From: Fibrobacter sp.
Lineage (GTDB): Bacteria > Fibrobacterota > Fibrobacteria > Fibrobacterales > Fibrobacteraceae
Assembly: GCA_024399035.1 (NCBI GenBank)
Contig: JAKSID010000012.1
Location: 11,125 to 75,124 of the forward strand
Direction of reading: 5' to 3'
Length of the DNA: 64,000 nt
The position numbers were made by a program, and so were the translations under genes. This document shows, in pieces, positions 2,978 through 25,813 of this stretch. Under the pieces are notes generated by a model. That model had not been told where the DNA came from and made no database searches. It saw nothing but the letters and a program-made list of their open reading frames with translations. How positions within the stretch are numbered: the stretch's first letter is position 1; each line of letters opens with the position of its first letter.

Positions 2978-3272
2978 AGCATTAGAAAAGGCTCTGGTTA
3001 TTAAACCAGAACCTTTCTCATGCTAAAATCGTCTATCAAGTACGCGTTGTGCTCTAGACGAGAGCTTGGCTGACCGGAGGTTATTTATTAATGAACGAGC
3101 CAAGCGGTATTGCTGTGCTCATTTTGCGTTAGCATTAGAAAAGGCCCTGGTTGTTTTAAACCAGAGCCTTTCTCATACTAAAATCGTCTTTCCAGTACGC
3201 GTTGTGCTCTAGACGAGAGCTTGGCTGACCGGAGGTTCTCTATTAATGAACGAGCCAAGCGGTATTACCGTG
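2978..3272 (-). ncRNA. Two tandem copies (2978-3117, 3131-3272) of a structured RNA-like unit, each ending in a terminator
   Basis: Near-identical direct repeats with period 153 and conserved stems. Differences between the copies in the terminal hairpin give G-U pairs only on the minus strand. Confidence 0.55.
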
Positions 3273-3317
3273 AGCAAAAAGCCCCTGATATCAATCAGGG
3301 GTGTTTGCGAGAGTGAG
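3270..3317 (-). repeat. Short hairpin element (GTGAGCAA...TGCGAGAGTGAG family), likely terminator of the upstream sugar transferase gene
   Basis: CCCCTGAT/ATCAGGGG stem with a U-tract on the minus strand. Its ends match the element at 23182-23229. Confidence 0.65.
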
Positions 3318-3357
3318 TGCTGTCAAATGGACTTTTGTGCATTGTGCACGAACGGTC

Positions 3358-15517: not shown

Positions 15518-17059
15518 ATGAAGAAACAAATAATCAAGTCCTTGGCTGTTGCTGGGGCATTCCTGTTTGGCGCAGCCTCCAATGTGAATGCTGCCCCAGA
15601 TCCTAATTTCCACATCTATATCGCCTTTGGCCAATCCAATATGGCAGGAGCCGCGGGAGCTGCAGAACCCGAAACGAAACCTTATCCTCGTTTCAAACTT
15701 TTGCCCTCTATGGATTGCCCGTCTAAAGGCCGCACCATGGGCGTATGGACCGATGCTACTTCACAGTTGGCAAATTGCGATAATCCGCCCAGCATTTCTG
15801 TTGCTGATTACTTTGGGCGTACCTTGGTGGATTCTTTACCTGACGTAACGGTGGGTATCATTTCTGTTGCTGTGGGTGGCACTGCACTTAAGTTGTTCGA
15901 TAAGGACAATTGGCAAGCTTATCTCGAAGATCCGGACCGTCAAAAGGAAAACTGGATTATCAACTGGGCAAAGGCTTACGATAGCAATTTGTACAAACGA
16001 ATTATTGACCTTGCAAAGATTGCCCAGAAAGATGGCGTCATCAAGGGTATCATAGTTCACCAGGGCGAATCGGACTGGAACAATAATCACTGGGCCGAAG
16101 ACCTCAAGAAAATTCGCGACGACATGCTGAATGATCTTGGACTCAGTTCCGATACGGTTCCGCTGCTTGCTGGCGAAATGCGTGAAGATGGTTGCTGCAG
16201 GGGCTTTAGTACAAGTCAGGTACAGCGCATTACTAAGGTAATGGACAATGCCTGGCCCGTTTCTTCTACTGGCCTCGGAAGCGCTGGAGACAACTACCAT
16301 TTTAACCGCGCTGGTTACATTGAATTTGGCAAGCGCTACGCCAAGGTGATGCTGGAACACATGAACCGTGTTTCTGTACCGCCGTCTCCTCATACACCTT
16401 TTAAGGGAGTTGCTGCAGAAATCCCGGGCAAGCTCCAGGTGGAAAACTATGATGAACCGGGTGTTGGCTCCATCGGAAAATCCTACTTGGATAACGATTC
16501 CGAAAACAAGTCTAAGGCCTACCGCAATGATGGTGTGGACATTGAAGAACTTTCAGCAGAGCCTGGTTCTTATGTGATTGGCTACACAGAGAAGGGCGAA
16601 TGGCTTAAATATACCGTGAAAGTTGCTGACGCTGTAGATTACTCTGTAACAGCCCGTGTGGCCAGCGCCGCAAAGGGTAGTGCTTTCCACTTGGAAATGG
16701 ATGACAAACCCATTACGGATACCGTCAAGGTGGATAGCATTGGCGGCTGGGGCGACTATAAGGAAATTACCTTTAAGACTTCAGAAATCGATGCCGGTGA
16801 ACATGTGCTGAAACTTGTTGTTGATGGCTCCTACGTGAATATCGACTGGCTGGATTTTGTAAGTCGTGCAGATACTACCGCAGCCATCGGCAACAAAGGT
16901 GTACGACTGGAACTTGACAAGTCTGCAACTTATAAGGTCTTTGACCTTAACGGAAATTACCTAGGTGTAAGCGCCGGAACCAAAATTGGTAACCTGGGCA
17001 AGGGCGTATACATGCTCAAGGGAAACGGAAAAACCTTGATGATTCGCAATAACGAATAG
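15518..17059 (+). CDS. Secreted CE6 acetylxylan esterase (SASA domain) + CBM6
   Basis: Signal peptide; catalytic motifs GQSNM, HQGE and DxxH (DNYHF); CBM6 motifs ENYD, GEWLKYTV and GGW. Confidence 0.88.
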   Translation: MKKQIIKSLAVAGAFLFGAASNVNAAPDPNFHIYIAFGQSNMAGAAGAAEPETKPYPRFKLLPSMDCPSKGRTMGVWTDATSQLANCDNPPSISVADYFGRTLVDSLPDVTVGIISVAVGGTALKLFDKDNWQAYLEDPDRQKENWIINWAKAYDSNLYKRIIDLAKIAQKDGVIKGIIVHQGESDWNNNHWAEDLKKIRDDMLNDLGLSSDTVPLLAGEMREDGCCRGFSTSQVQRITKVMDNAWPVSSTGLGSAGDNYHFNRAGYIEFGKRYAKVMLEHMNRVSVPPSPHTPFKGVAAEIPGKLQVENYDEPGVGSIGKSYLDNDSENKSKAYRNDGVDIEELSAEPGSYVIGYTEKGEWLKYTVKVADAVDYSVTARVASAAKGSAFHLEMDDKPITDTVKVDSIGGWGDYKEITFKTSEIDAGEHVLKLVVDGSYVNIDWLDFVSRADTTAAIGNKGVRLELDKSATYKVFDLNGNYLGVSAGTKIGNLGKGVYMLKGNGKTLMIRNNE

Positions 17060-21027: not shown

Positions 21028-22956
21028 TTACTTGAGTACAACGGGCTGGGTTGCGGCGATGCCTGCGCCCTTGACGCGCACGATGTACTGGCCCTTAGGC
21101 ATGTCGCTCAAGTCGAATGCGTGAGTGCCTGCAGAGAGTGTGCCGCGGAACAGGGTTGCAATGCTGTTGCCGTTCATGCTGAATACGTCAACAGAGGTTT
21201 CGCTTGCGAATGCAGTGGAGAGCATAATGCTGTTGCCAACCACAGACATCTTTGCGGAAGGAGCTGCTGCGACTGCCTTTACTGCCTGACCGCTACCGTT
21301 GGGGTTGCCGCCCATAACGTAGTCTTCGTTGTACACGATCTTGATTTCAGGAATCATTTCTTCGGTATTTTCGTAACCGCGGCTAAAGGCGTCGTACTTG
21401 TCTTCGTTGAAGTCGAACAAGACGGTTTCGCCGGCCTTGATGTCGTCATAGACAATGGTGCCGGTGTAGCCTGCAGCGTAGTTTGCAAGCACAATTGCCA
21501 AGGTCTTGTTACGGTCGGCCAATTCAGAAATGTCGATGGAACAGGTCACCTTTTCGCCTGCAGGAACCTTGCAACTGCCTTCTGTTTCGGTCCATTTCCA
21601 GGAATCGGTTAATTTCAGAATCAGATAAAGGTCTGCTTCGTCAGAGCCATTGTTCTTGGCAGTCCAGGTGAGGGTTGTTGCGCCGGAAAGGTTCCAACCG
21701 CCCTTGTTCTGGTATTCAATCTGCGCGTTGTCGCCGCCGTAGGTCACTGCCATCTTGCCGTCGCCACTTGCGGAAGAAATGTCTACGTCCTTGATCTTGA
21801 TGGAGGCTTCTGCAGTTGCTGCAAGCTTGGTCATAGCGTCAAGTGCCGGGTCAATGGTGTAGCTGTAACCGCCGAAGTTACTTTCGGTCTTGTCGCCAAT
21901 GTACTGCCATGCCAATGCGCCTGCGTAGCCGCTTTCGTAAGCGAACTTATAGGCCTGTTCCGTAGAAATCTGGGTCTTTGCTGCCATGGAAGCGGTGTAG
22001 GTGTCGCCACTCCAGCCGCTAGCCGGGAATTCACCGATAATCATGGGCTTGGCGTCGTACTTGTACTTAACCTGCATTTCTGCAGCGGTATTTACGAAGG
22101 GAGAAACTGCATCGCCCTGATAGTAGGGATAGTAATGGGTCTGGAAGAAGTCCAGGGTACCGTTGGCTTCGCCGCCGGCTGCAATGAGGTTGGCATCGTT
22201 CCACCATTCCTGATACTGGATATTCACGCTACCGGTAGAAACCAGCAAATCCGGATTTGTGGTATGGATGGCTGCGGCCACCTTGTTGGTGAACTTCTGG
22301 AGGGTTTCCTTTTCCAACTTCTTGGCGGTCCAACCTACGCTGGTCATACCTTCCGGTTCGTTGAAAACTTCCCAAGTCATAAGGGCGTTATGATCGCCAA
22401 TACCCTTGATCACAGGAATCAGCACGTTGTCAATAAAGGCCTTGGTGCCGTCGTCTGTAAAGAGCTTGGAGTTTGCTTCCAAATCCATGCAACCGTCCTG
22501 GGTGCAACCATCAACCTTCGGGTAGATGCCCCACTGGTTCACTTCCATCAGGTTGTGGCTGAACAAGCACATGGAGACCATCACACCGTATTCTTCGGCG
22601 ATGTCCAAAGCCTTCTTCATGTTGGAAATAGTGCTTGCCTTAAGGCCAGAAACCAGGTGGGTGGTTTCGTCAATTGCGGGGCTCTGGCTCATGTTGTTAA
22701 AGAGCCACCAGCGGATTGCGTTACCGCCTGCGGCACGGGTGCCTTCCACAGCCTTGCGCCATGCATTTTCGTCCAGGGGGCTATCGCCAACGTCGGAATT
22801 GTAGTCTGCCCAGGCCAGGTTGGTGCCGCTGAAGAAAATCTTCTTGCCCTTGTACATCAAGTCTGTACCGCTGACGGTAAGACCGGGGGCTGCGAAGGCT
22901 GCTGTTGCGGAGCCGGCGAGTGCGGCGAAAATGGCTGCTTTAGCGAATTTATTCAT
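21028..22956 (-). CDS. Secreted GH5 glycoside hydrolase (probable mannanase) with extra module and basic tail
   Basis: Motifs NLAW..Y..D.G, WEVFNEPEG, QTHYY, IIGEFP and ALAWQY. Confidence 0.85.
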   Translation of the reverse strand: MNKFAKAAIFAALAGSATAAFAAPGLTVSGTDLMYKGKKIFFSGTNLAWADYNSDVGDSPLDENAWRKAVEGTRAAGGNAIRWWLFNNMSQSPAIDETTHLVSGLKASTISNMKKALDIAEEYGVMVSMCLFSHNLMEVNQWGIYPKVDGCTQDGCMDLEANSKLFTDDGTKAFIDNVLIPVIKGIGDHNALMTWEVFNEPEGMTSVGWTAKKLEKETLQKFTNKVAAAIHTTNPDLLVSTGSVNIQYQEWWNDANLIAAGGEANGTLDFFQTHYYPYYQGDAVSPFVNTAAEMQVKYKYDAKPMIIGEFPASGWSGDTYTASMAAKTQISTEQAYKFAYESGYAGALAWQYIGDKTESNFGGYSYTIDPALDAMTKLAATAEASIKIKDVDISSASGDGKMAVTYGGDNAQIEYQNKGGWNLSGATTLTWTAKNNGSDEADLYLILKLTDSWKWTETEGSCKVPAGEKVTCSIDISELADRNKTLAIVLANYAAGYTGTIVYDDIKAGETVLFDFNEDKYDAFSRGYENTEEMIPEIKIVYNEDYVMGGNPNGSGQAVKAVAAAPSAKMSVVGNSIMLSTAFASETSVDVFSMNGNSIATLFRGTLSAGTHAFDLSDMPKGQYIVRVKGAGIAATQPVVLK

Positions 22957-23157
22957 TGAAAACTCCTTAATTTTACGGCATATAATCTATATACCCTTTG
23001 GTAAAATGTTCCCCTTGAAAGTTTATCTTAAACTTTTGTGTGAAAAAAGTCATATTTCAGGGGCGTTTTGGGGCTTTTTTGACAAAAAAAACGCCGCGAT
23101 TTCTCGCGACGTTTCTCCCAAACACTAAACAAGGTTTAGCGAAATTTTATTGTAAGG

Positions 23158-23325
23158 CCTTAGCGGCGAACGGGCTGTGTGAGCAAGAAACGCCTCGTCT
23201 CTTAACGAGGCGCTGATGCGAGAGTGAGCCCTTAGCGGCGAACGGGCTGTGTGAGCAAGAAACGCCTCGTCTCTTAACGAGGCGCTGATGCGAGAGTGAG
23301 CCCTTAGCGGCGAACGGGCTGTGTG
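23158..23325. repeat. 72-bp tandem repeat: three 24-bp direct repeats separated by two identical 48-bp hairpin elements
   Basis: CCTTAGCGGCGAACGGGCTGTGTG at 23158, 23230 and 23302. The third copy is the 3' end and stop of the GH26 gene. Confidence 0.95.
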
Positions 23326-25601
23326 GCTGCGAAGCCTGCGCCCTTCACGCGGATAATGTACTGACCCTTGGCGAGGTCGCTCATGTCAAAGACGTGGGTG
23401 CCTGCAGAGAGCATGCCACGATAGAGGGTTGCAACGCGCTTGCCGGTCATGCCGAACACGTCGACGCTAACCATGCCAGACTGAGCTGCGTTCAGCAAAA
23501 TGCTGTTGCCCATAACGCTGAGCTTGGAACCAGCCATGGCCTTTGCCACGGTCTTGATGGCGGCGGGGGTGCCTGTGCCCTTGCCAGTTTCGTCAACCAG
23601 TTCAATCTTCACGATCATGGCTTCGGTTTCTTCGCTAGCGGTAAACAGCTGCTTTTCGCTATTGAAGTTGTTGATGATCTTGCCGTTGTCGGTAACCATG
23701 TTATCAAAGATCACGGTGCCGGCATAACCCGGGGTAGAAATCATGACGGTTGCGGAGAAAATCTTGTCCAGATCGGTAGCGTGGGTAACGCCGTCGTCAT
23801 CGGTGTATTCGGTAATGTCGAATTCGCAAGTCTTCTTTTGGCCACCTTCGAGCCAGCAGTCGGTGGAGTTGGACATTTCCCAGGTCCAAGCCTTGTCTGC
23901 AGAACCATCGCGAACGAAGGCGAGGCCGATCCATACGCCGTCAGCACCAGTGTTTTCTATATCCAGGGAGATGGTGGTAGAACCAGTTAGGTCGCCAATC
24001 TTGGTGTAGGCGATGTTAGCACCAGCATCTTCAGTAAGTTCCTTGACGGTAACTGCCATCTTGTAATCCTTGGCGGCACCAGAAGCCTTGTCCTTGTCTC
24101 CGTCGTACTTAGCCTGAGCCTTGGAAACGGCGCAAGTCTGAGAACCGACAGTAGCCATGGTGTAGTTATCCCAACCCGGCATTTCGTCCAAGGTGATGAT
24201 CTTGTCGCTTTCCATGTTCTTCTTCCAAACGTCGTTGCTGGTAGAATCAACATAGCCGCCATTCCAAGACTGATACCAAGGCATCCACCAGCTCCAAAGA
24301 GCGTTGTCTGCAGCCATATTGTCTACATCAGGAATCGGACCGTTTTCGGACAGGGCCAGGACCTTGTTGGTGCTGAACTTGTTCATCAAGTCGAAGAATC
24401 CAGAGCTATTGCTGGCGTGGTTACCCTTGTCGTTGTAAATGTCGATGGAGAGAACGTCGTAGTAGGATTCGCCCGGAGTCCAGTCGGTGCGAGCTGCGGT
24501 CTGGGGGTTGAAATCCCAAATCAGGTTGTTCACGCCGTTCTTGAAAACCATGCGTTCGTACATCAACTGGTAAAGGGCTGCGAACTGCTTGCCAGTGTGG
24601 GTGCTCCACCAGAACCAGCTACCACCGGATTCGTGGAGGGGACGGAAGATTGCTGCAACACCTTCTTCCTGGAGAGCGAGGAAGTGCTGAGAAACCTTGT
24701 CAATGTCACCAACCAGAGCCTTGTATTCAGTAGACAGGGTGTCCCAAGTGGTGGTTCCAGTCATGAAGGCGTTGGTGAAATCAAAATCGGTGTAGTTGGT
24801 ATTTGCGCCTGCTACGTAGAACTGGGTTTCTTCACCGGGGCGCCAGTGCCAGGTGATAGCCGGAATGCCGCCCTTCTTCCAAATGGACTTGGCAACATCC
24901 AGAGCCTTTTCGTTGTATTCTTTGAACCAGTTGCTTTCGGAATCACCGCCGGTAGCGTTCATCATATCGACGCCAACCAATGCGGGGTACTTGCCGCTTC
25001 TGGTGTATACAGCCTGGACGTCTTCGTGCTGGGTTGCATCGCCCTTGGTGTAGTTGTCCATGTTACCGGTCATGATACCGGAAATGGTATTCTTCTGGAA
25101 ATTGCTTGCAAGGAAGTTGTAAAGTTTCTTGGCACTTTCAGTTGCGTTTGCAGTGACAGGAGCGTTACAGAGAGTGAATTCACCAACGGTGAACGGTTCC
25201 ACAGAAATGTAGTCCACGTCAATCCAGCCCCAGCTCTTGCCGATGGTAATTTTGTTTGCGCCTGCCTTCAGGTTAGCAACAGAAACGATGTCGGTAAATG
25301 CCTTGCCGCTTGCGAAAGTAATTTCGGCAACCTTGACGCCGTCAATCAAGAGGTTGTTGATTTTTTCGCCGTAGGAGCCTGCGTAATGAATGGTGATGGA
25401 ATAGTTTCCGGCGCTGGGAACGGTGACGTTGAAGTCGATGTCTCCTTCTTCCATTTTCAGGTAGGCGCCGCCGGATGCGGAAGCGCTTGTCAGCTTGCTA
25501 ACGCCGGTGCCGTAAACTGCATCTTCAGCTTCGTACTTGTCTGCTGCAAAGGCGCAGGTTGCGGCCAGGCCAAATATGGCCAAATTTCTCTTGAAACTCA
25601 T
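23304..25601 (-). CDS. Secreted GH26 beta-mannanase: CBM35 + GH26 + extra module + basic tail
   Basis: Motifs YEAED, SWGW, FRPLHESGGSWFWW and ALSENG. Confidence 0.9.
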   Translation of the reverse strand: MSFKRNLAIFGLAATCAFAADKYEAEDAVYGTGVSKLTSASASGGAYLKMEEGDIDFNVTVPSAGNYSITIHYAGSYGEKINNLLIDGVKVAEITFASGKAFTDIVSVANLKAGANKITIGKSWGWIDVDYISVEPFTVGEFTLCNAPVTANATESAKKLYNFLASNFQKNTISGIMTGNMDNYTKGDATQHEDVQAVYTRSGKYPALVGVDMMNATGGDSESNWFKEYNEKALDVAKSIWKKGGIPAITWHWRPGEETQFYVAGANTNYTDFDFTNAFMTGTTTWDTLSTEYKALVGDIDKVSQHFLALQEEGVAAIFRPLHESGGSWFWWSTHTGKQFAALYQLMYERMVFKNGVNNLIWDFNPQTAARTDWTPGESYYDVLSIDIYNDKGNHASNSSGFFDLMNKFSTNKVLALSENGPIPDVDNMAADNALWSWWMPWYQSWNGGYVDSTSNDVWKKNMESDKIITLDEMPGWDNYTMATVGSQTCAVSKAQAKYDGDKDKASGAAKDYKMAVTVKELTEDAGANIAYTKIGDLTGSTTISLDIENTGADGVWIGLAFVRDGSADKAWTWEMSNSTDCWLEGGQKKTCEFDITEYTDDDGVTHATDLDKIFSATVMISTPGYAGTVIFDNMVTDNGKIINNFNSEKQLFTASEETEAMIVKIELVDETGKGTGTPAAIKTVAKAMAGSKLSVMGNSILLNAAQSGMVSVDVFGMTGKRVATLYRGMLSAGTHVFDMSDLAKGQYIIRVKGAGFAATQPVRR

Positions 25602-25813
25602 AAAACACTCCATACAAGTTGTGAATTTTCAACCTATAAACTATACTAGCCACGGTCGTGTAGAAATGTTTTTCTTATTCCACGATGTAATAACGTTGAA
25701 TAAAACTCAACAAGCTAATGGGCATGAAAATGGCGTTTTCTTTTGAAAAACGCCACTTTTTATAAAGGTGTTGAAAAATTTAGGGTCTGAAACAGGCCTA
25801 AAATGCCGCCGGA

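Follow-up and report, generated by a model that had tools for sequence, protein, structure and literature searches.

Bacterial genomes commonly contain small structured repeats, REP, BOX, SPRITE and ERIC among them, and to our knowledge neither the mechanism by which most of them spread nor their effect on the host is known. REP, BIME and REPIN sequences are mobilised by RAYT (Y1 HUH) transposases in Proteobacteria, and integrases of the Cas1 family, acting in CRISPR repeat duplication and in casposons, are known to generate target or repeat duplications as long as 14-37 bp. The SPRITE and BOX repeats of pneumococci are small (<200 nt) non-coding interspersed repeats of one species group that are predicted to fold and are enriched near gene 3' ends (2011, PMC3049150). 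SPRITE is terminator-like, with neither a transposase nor a target-site duplication (TSD) assignable to it, and BOX is modular, with modules that can be absent or repeated (PMC3049150).

The locus analysed here lies in a stretch of 64,000 nucleotides, referred to as the window (G000:C4:11125-75124), of a Fibrobacter metagenome-assembled genome (MAG; G000) of 2.94 Mb in 95 contigs that is 88% complete. Tandem Repeats Finder analysis of the window identified a repeat of period 72 at 23158-23325, present in 2.3 (2.33) copies with 100% matches and zero indels. This bears out the layout DR24-E48-DR24-E48-DR24, in the phase of a preliminary description of this DNA, at the end of a GH26 gene whose stop codon falls in the gene-proximal DR24 (Table 1). 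The GH26 gene carries the Pfam domains CBM_35 (3e-24) and Glyco_hydro_26 (8e-51), and the Por_Secre_tail domain is present in its neighbouring paralogue and in its orthologues. An exact-protein look-up of the 769-aa product returned no record, and a 765-aa form and cluster members were used instead. The product ends ...ATQPVRR* as opposed to the usual ...TQPVxIK*, with the TAA at 23304-23306. Beyond the third DR24 the native flank CCTTACAAT is the same as the flank after the single gene end in two alleles that lack the element (L156 and L165), and the native terminator-like hairpin on the 3' side of the array is kept in relatives both with and without E48 (L005, L007, L014, L015, L156 and others). 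As a separate observation, the last ~150 nt of the neighbouring GH5-like and GH26 genes (21028-21180 and 23304-23480), which code for the T9SS sorting tail, share ~80% nucleotide identity, a similarity that fits copying of a C-terminal cassette between the two genes; within this pair the RR* ending and the repeat occur in the GH26 copy only.

Table 1. Positions, in the window, of the features of the GH26 locus and of the related full-length repeat unit.
Feature	Position	Strand	Basis or remark
Secreted beta-mannanase-type gene, CBM35 + GH26 + C-terminal T9SS sorting tail	23304..25613	-	769 aa, ORF list
DR24 copy 1 (gene-proximal)	23302..23325	-	Last seven codons of the GH26 gene + TAA + GG
E48 copy 1	23254..23301	-	Sequence, conserved-ends pattern
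DR24 copy 2	23230..23253	-	Internal, untranslated; E-DR-E junction in X1 and X8 contigs
E48 copy 2	23182..23229	-	Sequence, conserved-ends pattern
DR24 copy 3	23158..23181	-	Trailing partial unit (box only), abuts native flank
Family unit 1	23251..23319	-	cmsearch 53.6 bits, E 6.9e-12, model positions 1-89 of 89
Family unit 2	23179..23247	-	cmsearch 53.6 bits, E 6.9e-12; identical to unit 1
Native intrinsic-terminator-like hairpin, T8 tract	23083..23119	-	Fold -21.3 kcal/mol, z -4.05; 3' of array
Full-length 88-nt family unit	3270..3357	-	cmsearch 85.3 bits, E 4e-20

The family to which the array belongs was defined from an alignment of 72 distinct units from other Fibrobacter genomes, and the covariance model (R1) was built without the genome of the window. 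The consensus of these units reads GACCGTTCGCGCTAAA...(hairpin 1)...GCG-CTCACTCTCGCAACC-(stem)-TTAATA-(stem)-TTTGTTGCTCAC. A canonical unit of ~89-95 nt opens with a GACCGTTCG box, which touches a stop codon or overlaps with it and is invariant or nearly so in the 72 training units. The box is followed by hairpin 1, closed by a covarying 3-bp helix (P1) that pairs the base after the box with bases before CTCAC, then by the linker CTCACTCTCGCA and by hairpin 2, in which the G+C stem covaries freely, the loop is TTAATA-like and the U tract is weak, and the unit closes with TTGCTCAC. RNAalifold analysis gave 17 pairs, 12 with compensatory changes, among them the P1 pairs with 24 and 22 double changes.

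This foreign-built model matched the window three times, at the family units listed in Table 1. Both array units aligned end to end and skipped only 24 interior positions of hairpin 1, and the P1 pairing GCC...GGC is retained despite the loss of this interior. The window box GCCCGUUCG falls at model positions 1-9 in both units and DR24, from GCCCGUUCGCCGCUA to the terminal GG, aligned to box and P1 in both. The DR24 sequence GCCCGTTCG corresponds to the 5' box of the family, DR24 also holds the closing helix of hairpin 1, and in copy 1 the 3' two-thirds (GCCCGTTCGCCGCTAAGG) are box plus P1 helix, with model positions 1-15 aligned. As DR24 and E48 together match the model from end to end, each 72-bp period is a whole unit, shortened internally to 69 nt, together with a 3-nt spacer, and its family membership is directly observed. 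The order within unit 1 is box, P1 mini-hairpin, linker, hairpin 2 (stem GCGCCTCG/CGAGGCG, loop TTAAGAGA) and 3' end; its RNA is predicted to fold at -28.5 kcal/mol (z -3.5) with an AGCCC/GGGCU pairing. Family homology enters DR24 by 3 nt (GTG/CAC), which makes the E module 51 nt and the remainder 21 nt. A pattern of the conserved ends, GTGAGCAA-N-TGCGAGAGTGAG, occurs three times in the window (3270, 23179 and 23251) compared with 0 in 100 shuffles, and linker and 3' end are matched exactly at 23179-23228 and 23251-23300. Read from the sequence, the box is fused in frame to the GH26 gene, as the ORF terminates 16 nt into the family unit and the element region comprises the last two Arg codons and the TAA; an ORF likewise terminates 16 nt into a unit at G000 C1:95426.

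Searches of the genome G000 identified ~17 related sites with nhmmer seeded with the window copies and 18 matches with the covariance model, and the family was found in dozens of Fibrobacter genomes. When one genome of each prokaryotic species was scanned for the exact pattern, at least 119 DNA stretches matched; among the 80 listed, 75 come from Fibrobacter or Fibrobacterales and the other 5, about the number expected by chance, have no hairpin. Rfam matched nothing in the whole window at gathering thresholds and gave only chance-level matches (E >= 1) near the array, full-text searches of the literature on Fibrobacter found no description of the repeat family, and pattern scans of metagenomes for the DR24/E48 junction and the E48 subtype gave no match.

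Our survey of hairpin-bearing E units showed that a box lies upstream, within 62 nt, in 128/132 cases (97%), indicating that the dispersed unit is box plus E and not E alone. Genes of many unrelated kinds lie upstream of the units, and several species retain units at orthologous loci. At 30/41 loci with an upstream ORF of at least 80 codons, the CCG core of the box begins 0-5 nt behind the end of the stop codon, and at a few family loci the upstream ORF ends inside the unit, as in GH26. A candidate explanation in which solo boxes are common at stop codons in G000 was rejected, given that GACCG[TC]TCG is not over-represented outside units. Head-to-tail arrays occur elsewhere in G000 (C12:100584-100808, C67:49018-49220 and C10:50547-50823), and the layout of n units plus a trailing box recurs in these three and in L028 (91 nt x 2.2, 100% identity). 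A downstream copy of the box is present in 16/64 array-terminal units and absent in 48/64. Where present, it is identical to the upstream copy over 1-28 nt and is always the conserved box, never an arbitrary target.

These results change the outline given in the preliminary description. E48 is indeed dispersed, as it had proposed, and is co-oriented with the upstream gene, but its choice of the 48-mer as the dispersed unit gives way to a unit made of DR24 and E48 together. The homologue it had listed at 3270-3317 as free of the direct repeat is part of the 3270-3357 unit, which does carry a box, directly behind the TAA of the upstream minus-strand gene. Its reading of the 24-mer as a long TSD, made by a staggered-cut or RNA-templated process, does not agree with trailing copies that are restricted to a quarter of terminal units, vary in length and always consist of the box, nor with the non-identical copies of one natural allele (L164) described below.

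Several further loci were recorded during this survey. In G001 (C9 ~15740-15790; L002/L016) an E48 92% identical to that of the window stands without a box, a single base separating it from the TAG of a GH5-like paralogue with the same kind of sorting-tail 3' end; this is the only clear box-less E unit of the 132 examined and counts as evidence that E may travel alone. The G001 locus was also considered as a filled orthologue and rejected, its gene being GH5-like, 35% identical to the neighbouring gene and without a GH26 domain. Orthologous loci can differ entirely in the stem of hairpin 2 (GCCCTCGA... in L047 and L067 vs ACGCCTCG... in L060, L098 and L110; likewise L084, L086 and L104 vs L091). 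As upstream context, box and hairpin 1 are identical at these loci, the hairpin-2 module is exchanged or differentially lost within arrays. In L080 (RUG12637) and L061 an endonuclease-III-like gene ends ...CPICRHMTVRA*, and the sequence of its last codons plus TAA (CACATGACCGTTCGCGCCTAA) is itself the spacer plus box of the two-unit array that follows, which looks like a second case of the repeat supplying a gene C-terminus. At G000 C12:100413-100810, three units with hairpin-2 types A-B-A follow a gene ending ...FMRMFGGKDNF* and another hairpin, and all their boxes carry a locus-specific TA(T)ACCG variant. Just downstream of the 3270-3357 unit in the window, at 2978-3272 (-), there are two tandem units of ~140 nt, each opening with the box variant ATACCGCTTGGCTCG; their blocks GAACCTCC and GCTCTCGTC recur in long family units such as G000 C67, but these tandem units have a different terminator-like end hairpin and are probably a longer relative of the repeat family. 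A sister genome (L102) has only a box fragment at the equivalent position.

Logan contigs of four runs from four studies were compared across the array locus. Contigs of two studies (X1 record 3 and X8 record 12) contain the E48-DR24-E48 junction, and since the 31-mers that span it need at least two units, the duplication exists in the reads and was not made by an assembler. In X1 the repeat contig has a depth of ~1.75x that of its flanks, where 2.33 copies predict 1.9x. Two runs of the other two studies (X4 and X11) each gave one continuous contig that skips exactly 72 bp, that is, the one-unit allele DR-E-DR, and contigs from four further runs encoding the same protein stop 8 nt past the stop codon, as expected at a repeat.

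Comparison of the GH26 locus among relatives showed that orthologues at 62-73% identity have the xIK* ending and no unit (L005, L007, L024, L025, L167 and L168). The members of a clade at or above 78% identity have a (V/I)RR* ending and no E48 (G071, G064, G063 and the syntenic gene of G065), and their nucleotides CC(C/G)(G/A)T(T/C)CGCCGCTAA match the box consensus at 14/16 positions with one extra C. Empty alleles occur in L156 (gene 98.8% identical, JGI contig) and L165 (98.4%). Both read ...CAGCCCGTCCGTCGATAA followed directly by GGCCTTACAAT..., with the protein end and both flanks as in the window, and differ from DR24 by three synonymous changes that make them less box-like. Alleles with zero, one and at least two units are therefore all directly observed. 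L156 and the window are 99.0% identical upstream of the site and 93.7% downstream, which points to a recombination boundary nearby. The three differences in L156 (3180-3186, GTC CGT CGA vs GTT CGC CGC at 23307-23315 in the window) occupy three consecutive codons exactly on the box, with perfect identity over 75 nt and 60 nt on either side in strains that are ~99% identical; this micro-cluster could be a short conversion tract or the result of selection on box-likeness. In a lineage at 95% identity (L157, L162, L163, L014 and G071) the GH26 stop and first box are followed, at 3 nt and with no intervening hairpin, by a second degenerate box (TAACCGAGCGCCGCTAA), which could be what is left of a lost unit or the result of a small tandem duplication at the gene end.

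The one-unit allele of L164 (97.4%) differs in its flanks, an arrangement that is directly observed. Its single E48 stands between ACC-CAGCCCGT-TCGCCGCTAAGG and ACA-CAGCCCGT-CCGTCGATAAGG, the two copies (ACC..GTTCGCCGC vs ACA..GTCCGTCGA) differ at 4/24 positions, all of them third codon positions, and each half matches a known allele. This fits the product expected of a crossover, or of a mismatch-repaired heteroduplex, between a filled and an empty allele, and the same product would result if a 72-nt unit underwent one crossover within CAGCCCGT. We infer that the 72-bp heterology can move by homologous recombination with the repeats as flanking homology. L164 was rejected as decisive proof against a TSD, as recombination of filled and empty alleles can also produce it. 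The alleles also bear on what had been predicted for this locus beforehand: the anticipated empty site with a single DR24 exists, as a DR24-equivalent, in the near-identical L156 and L165, and the second copy, for which re-insertion or slippage had been suggested, is a secondary amplification, given the one-unit alleles of X4 and X11. The assembly artefact against which the preliminary description had cautioned is excluded by the junction contigs of two studies, while the flanking duplications that it expected at other copies are mostly missing (48/64).

Overall, the array is probably best explained as two full units and a trailing box of a Fibrobacter-specific structured repeat of the REP/BOX/SPRITE kind that became fused to the end of the gene and was amplified by recombination between the 24-nt repeats. 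The RR* ending would have arisen in the ancestor of the clade, through recombination of a family box with the native ...CCGT where the coding sequence ends. The first step to DR-E-DR would most readily be copy-choice or recombination at the box, with a dedicated enzyme as the alternative. In the copy-choice variant the gene end would be re-copied after E48, and box-directed integration or staggered-cut insertion would also fit this locus. Once present, the 24-nt direct repeats may drive gain and loss of 72-bp units through unequal recombination or slippage, and the 72-bp heterology may pass between alleles by ordinary homologous recombination. An origin by simple CAC/CAC microhomology slippage was rejected, as it yields 2.04 copies instead of 2.33 and leaves the trailing DR24 unexplained. 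In the transcript the hairpin probably acts as a partial terminator or stabilises the 3' end; the predicted fold and the covariation make a role in RNA plausible, and the unit could also be the source of a 3'-UTR RNA.

Several findings count against this explanation. Target duplication, too, predicts an empty site that has identical flanks and just one DR24-equivalent. The duplicated 24 nt contain 9 nt of clearly native coding sequence (ACACAGCCC), which orthologues without the element share, so this gene end, and not a donor unit, was the source of the trailing copies. All three of the youngest arrays have a trailing copy (24 nt in the window, 18 nt in L028 and ~21 nt in G000 C67), and such a copy of 18-24 nt could be a signature of how they formed. 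A box-like PVRR* end without E48 exists in sister species and the empty alleles of the same species encode less box-like codons, so a native 'pseudo-box' later struck by E48 is a possible origin. The box-less E48 of G001, next to a paralogue's stop, also belongs here. On the other side, variable or absent trailing copies, a repeat that is always the box and the lack of any enzyme found mean that the family-wide data argue against a classical TSD of the transposase type.

Alternatively, though we consider this unlikely, the units may be kept mainly for a function in mRNA and not as selfish DNA, as a 3'-UTR module read by the terminating ribosome or by an RNA-binding protein. The unit would then terminate or stabilise the transcript or give rise to a small RNA derived from the 3' UTR, with the single-stranded CUCACUCUC as a putative seed or binding site and the array as a dosage variant. 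Both helices covary strongly while the single-stranded linker, loop and box are invariant, predicted folds are stable (z ~ -3.5 to -4), units sit at a fixed position 0-5 nt past the stop codon in the orientation of the gene, and they are retained at orthologous loci in several species, all of which is consistent with such a role; however, selection on a DNA hairpin would preserve covariation equally well. Units are also present or absent between strains that are 98-99% identical with nothing else changed, copy number differs among populations, the upstream genes are unrelated in kind, and a separate native terminator follows the array and is kept whether or not units are there, which together argue against retention for this purpose. 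With regard to intrinsic termination, the stem in the window is predicted to be stable (-28.5 kcal/mol for the unit) and the tail reads UUUCUUGCUCAC. A simple terminator and promoter scan of 22900-23400 flagged nothing and also missed the obvious native terminator, and is therefore uninformative.

It is also doubtful, if conceivable, that a dedicated activity inserts E-containing pieces at box-like sequences beside stop codons and duplicates ~18-24 nt, with arrays growing by repeated strikes on the box. Candidates for such an activity are a staggered-cut integrase of the Cas1 or casposase type, a site-specific recombinase, or a process templated by RNA or single-stranded DNA. This proposal accounts for the empty alleles with one DR24-equivalent and identical flanks, for the native coding bases inside the duplicated segment and for trailing copies of 24, 18 and ~21 nt in young arrays. 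Hairpin 2 is often heterogeneous within arrays whose boxes share locus-specific variants (A-B-A in G000 C12; L061), as fits separate strikes on an existing box, and the exchange of the hairpin-2 stem at orthologous loci (L047 and L067 vs L060, L098 and L110) can be read in the same way. It is opposed by the 48/64 array-terminal units without a trailing copy and by the range of 1-28 nt in the remainder, where no fixed length is kept, and by the repeat being, in every case, the one conserved box instead of arbitrary target sequence. The L164 copies differ at 4/24 positions, and the two E48 copies of the window are identical, hence the second is a local duplication.

No candidate gene lies adjacent to the array in the ORF list of the window. 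The preliminary description had pointed to co-occurrence with RAYT/TnpA, and this was not borne out: Y1 transposase (PF01797) has 0 matches in G000, at its 88% completeness, and is found in only 41/101 genomes of the genus. It is absent from the other 60, several of them 99-100% complete, and the repeat exists without Y1 in complete genomes such as G005 and G064; mobilisation by a RAYT was rejected for want of support. In a bolder form, which we regard as improbable on balance, the proposal is that a box-directed process of insertion, as yet undescribed in bacteria, spreads the family. A unit, perhaps excised as a single-stranded circle or made by copy choice at a stalled fork, would insert into a GACCGTTCG-like sequence beside a stop codon and duplicate ~18-24 nt of it. 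If true, the last codons and stop of a host gene would be rewritable in frame, and the GH26 locus, with its alleles of 0, 1 and 2 units and its hybrid, would be an example caught in the act.

Least credible of all, and by a wide distance, is that the MAG assembler expanded one copy to 2.33: short-read assemblies are prone to errors at short, perfect tandem repeats, the genome is a 95-contig MAG and some runs gave one-unit contigs, but this is contradicted by the E48-DR24-E48 31-mers in X1 and X8 and by the X1 depth of ~1.75x where 1.9x is expected.

The Fibrobacter family is unusual in that it hugs stop codons, has modules that vary independently and here supplies the last codons and stop of a secreted mannanase. 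Gut metagenomes hold an allelic series at the GH26 locus, consisting of empty, one-unit, two-unit and hybrid one-unit alleles, and this series makes copy-number dynamics, the origin of the flanking repeats and any effect on termination or mRNA stability directly testable. The results also carry a warning for annotation, as the 3' ends of Fibrobacter genes can derive from repeats.

In comparison with known systems, the array recalls CRISPR loci and casposons in its order of repeat-insert-repeat-insert-repeat with a 24-nt repeat and in an empty allele with one repeat. It differs from them in that both of its 48-nt 'spacers' have one and the same sequence, which is itself a dispersed hairpin, the repeat belongs to the dispersed unit, trailing copies in the family vary in length or are absent, and no cas gene was noted near the array. 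Integron attC recombination sites are likewise structured, begin at the stop codon of the ORF before them or inside it, have conserved ends around a paired interior that varies, and share one orientation within an array, whereas the Fibrobacter units have no RYYYAAC/GTTRRRY core pair and no ORFs between them, and follow conserved housekeeping and glycoside-hydrolase genes in stable synteny. Miniature inverted-repeat elements (MITEs) differ as well, in that the Fibrobacter units have no terminal inverted repeats and their flanking repeats are absent in 48/64 terminal units or else consist of 1-28 nt of the conserved box.

The nearest described elements are pneumococcal SPRITE and BOX together with REP/BIME. 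Like REP, BIME and REPIN sequences, the Fibrobacter repeats are short intergenic G+C hairpins after genes that have conserved flanking bases, are often clustered, show compensatory stems and vary in copy number between strains. Their arrays are, however, all head to tail and so form no inverted doublets, they have no GTAG-type head, their position is tied to the stop codon and G000 has no Y1_Tnp. With SPRITE and BOX they share small size, foldability and a place near gene 3' ends, and hairpin 1 is missing here as BOX modules can be. SPRITE has short AAAA/TTTT inverted termini and an 18-bp duplex, whereas the ends of the Fibrobacter unit are direct (CTCAC...CTCAC). SPRITE and BOX are not known to be related in sequence to the Fibrobacter units. 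By their description, they also differ from these units in the position of the latter 0-5 nt from the stop codon or overlapping it, their conserved 5' box, their head-to-tail accumulation and the wholesale compensatory replacement of their stems. New to this locus are a 72-nt unit without the interior of hairpin 1, an in-frame fusion that supplies the last codons and stop of a gene, and a natural allelic series of zero, one and two units with a hybrid.
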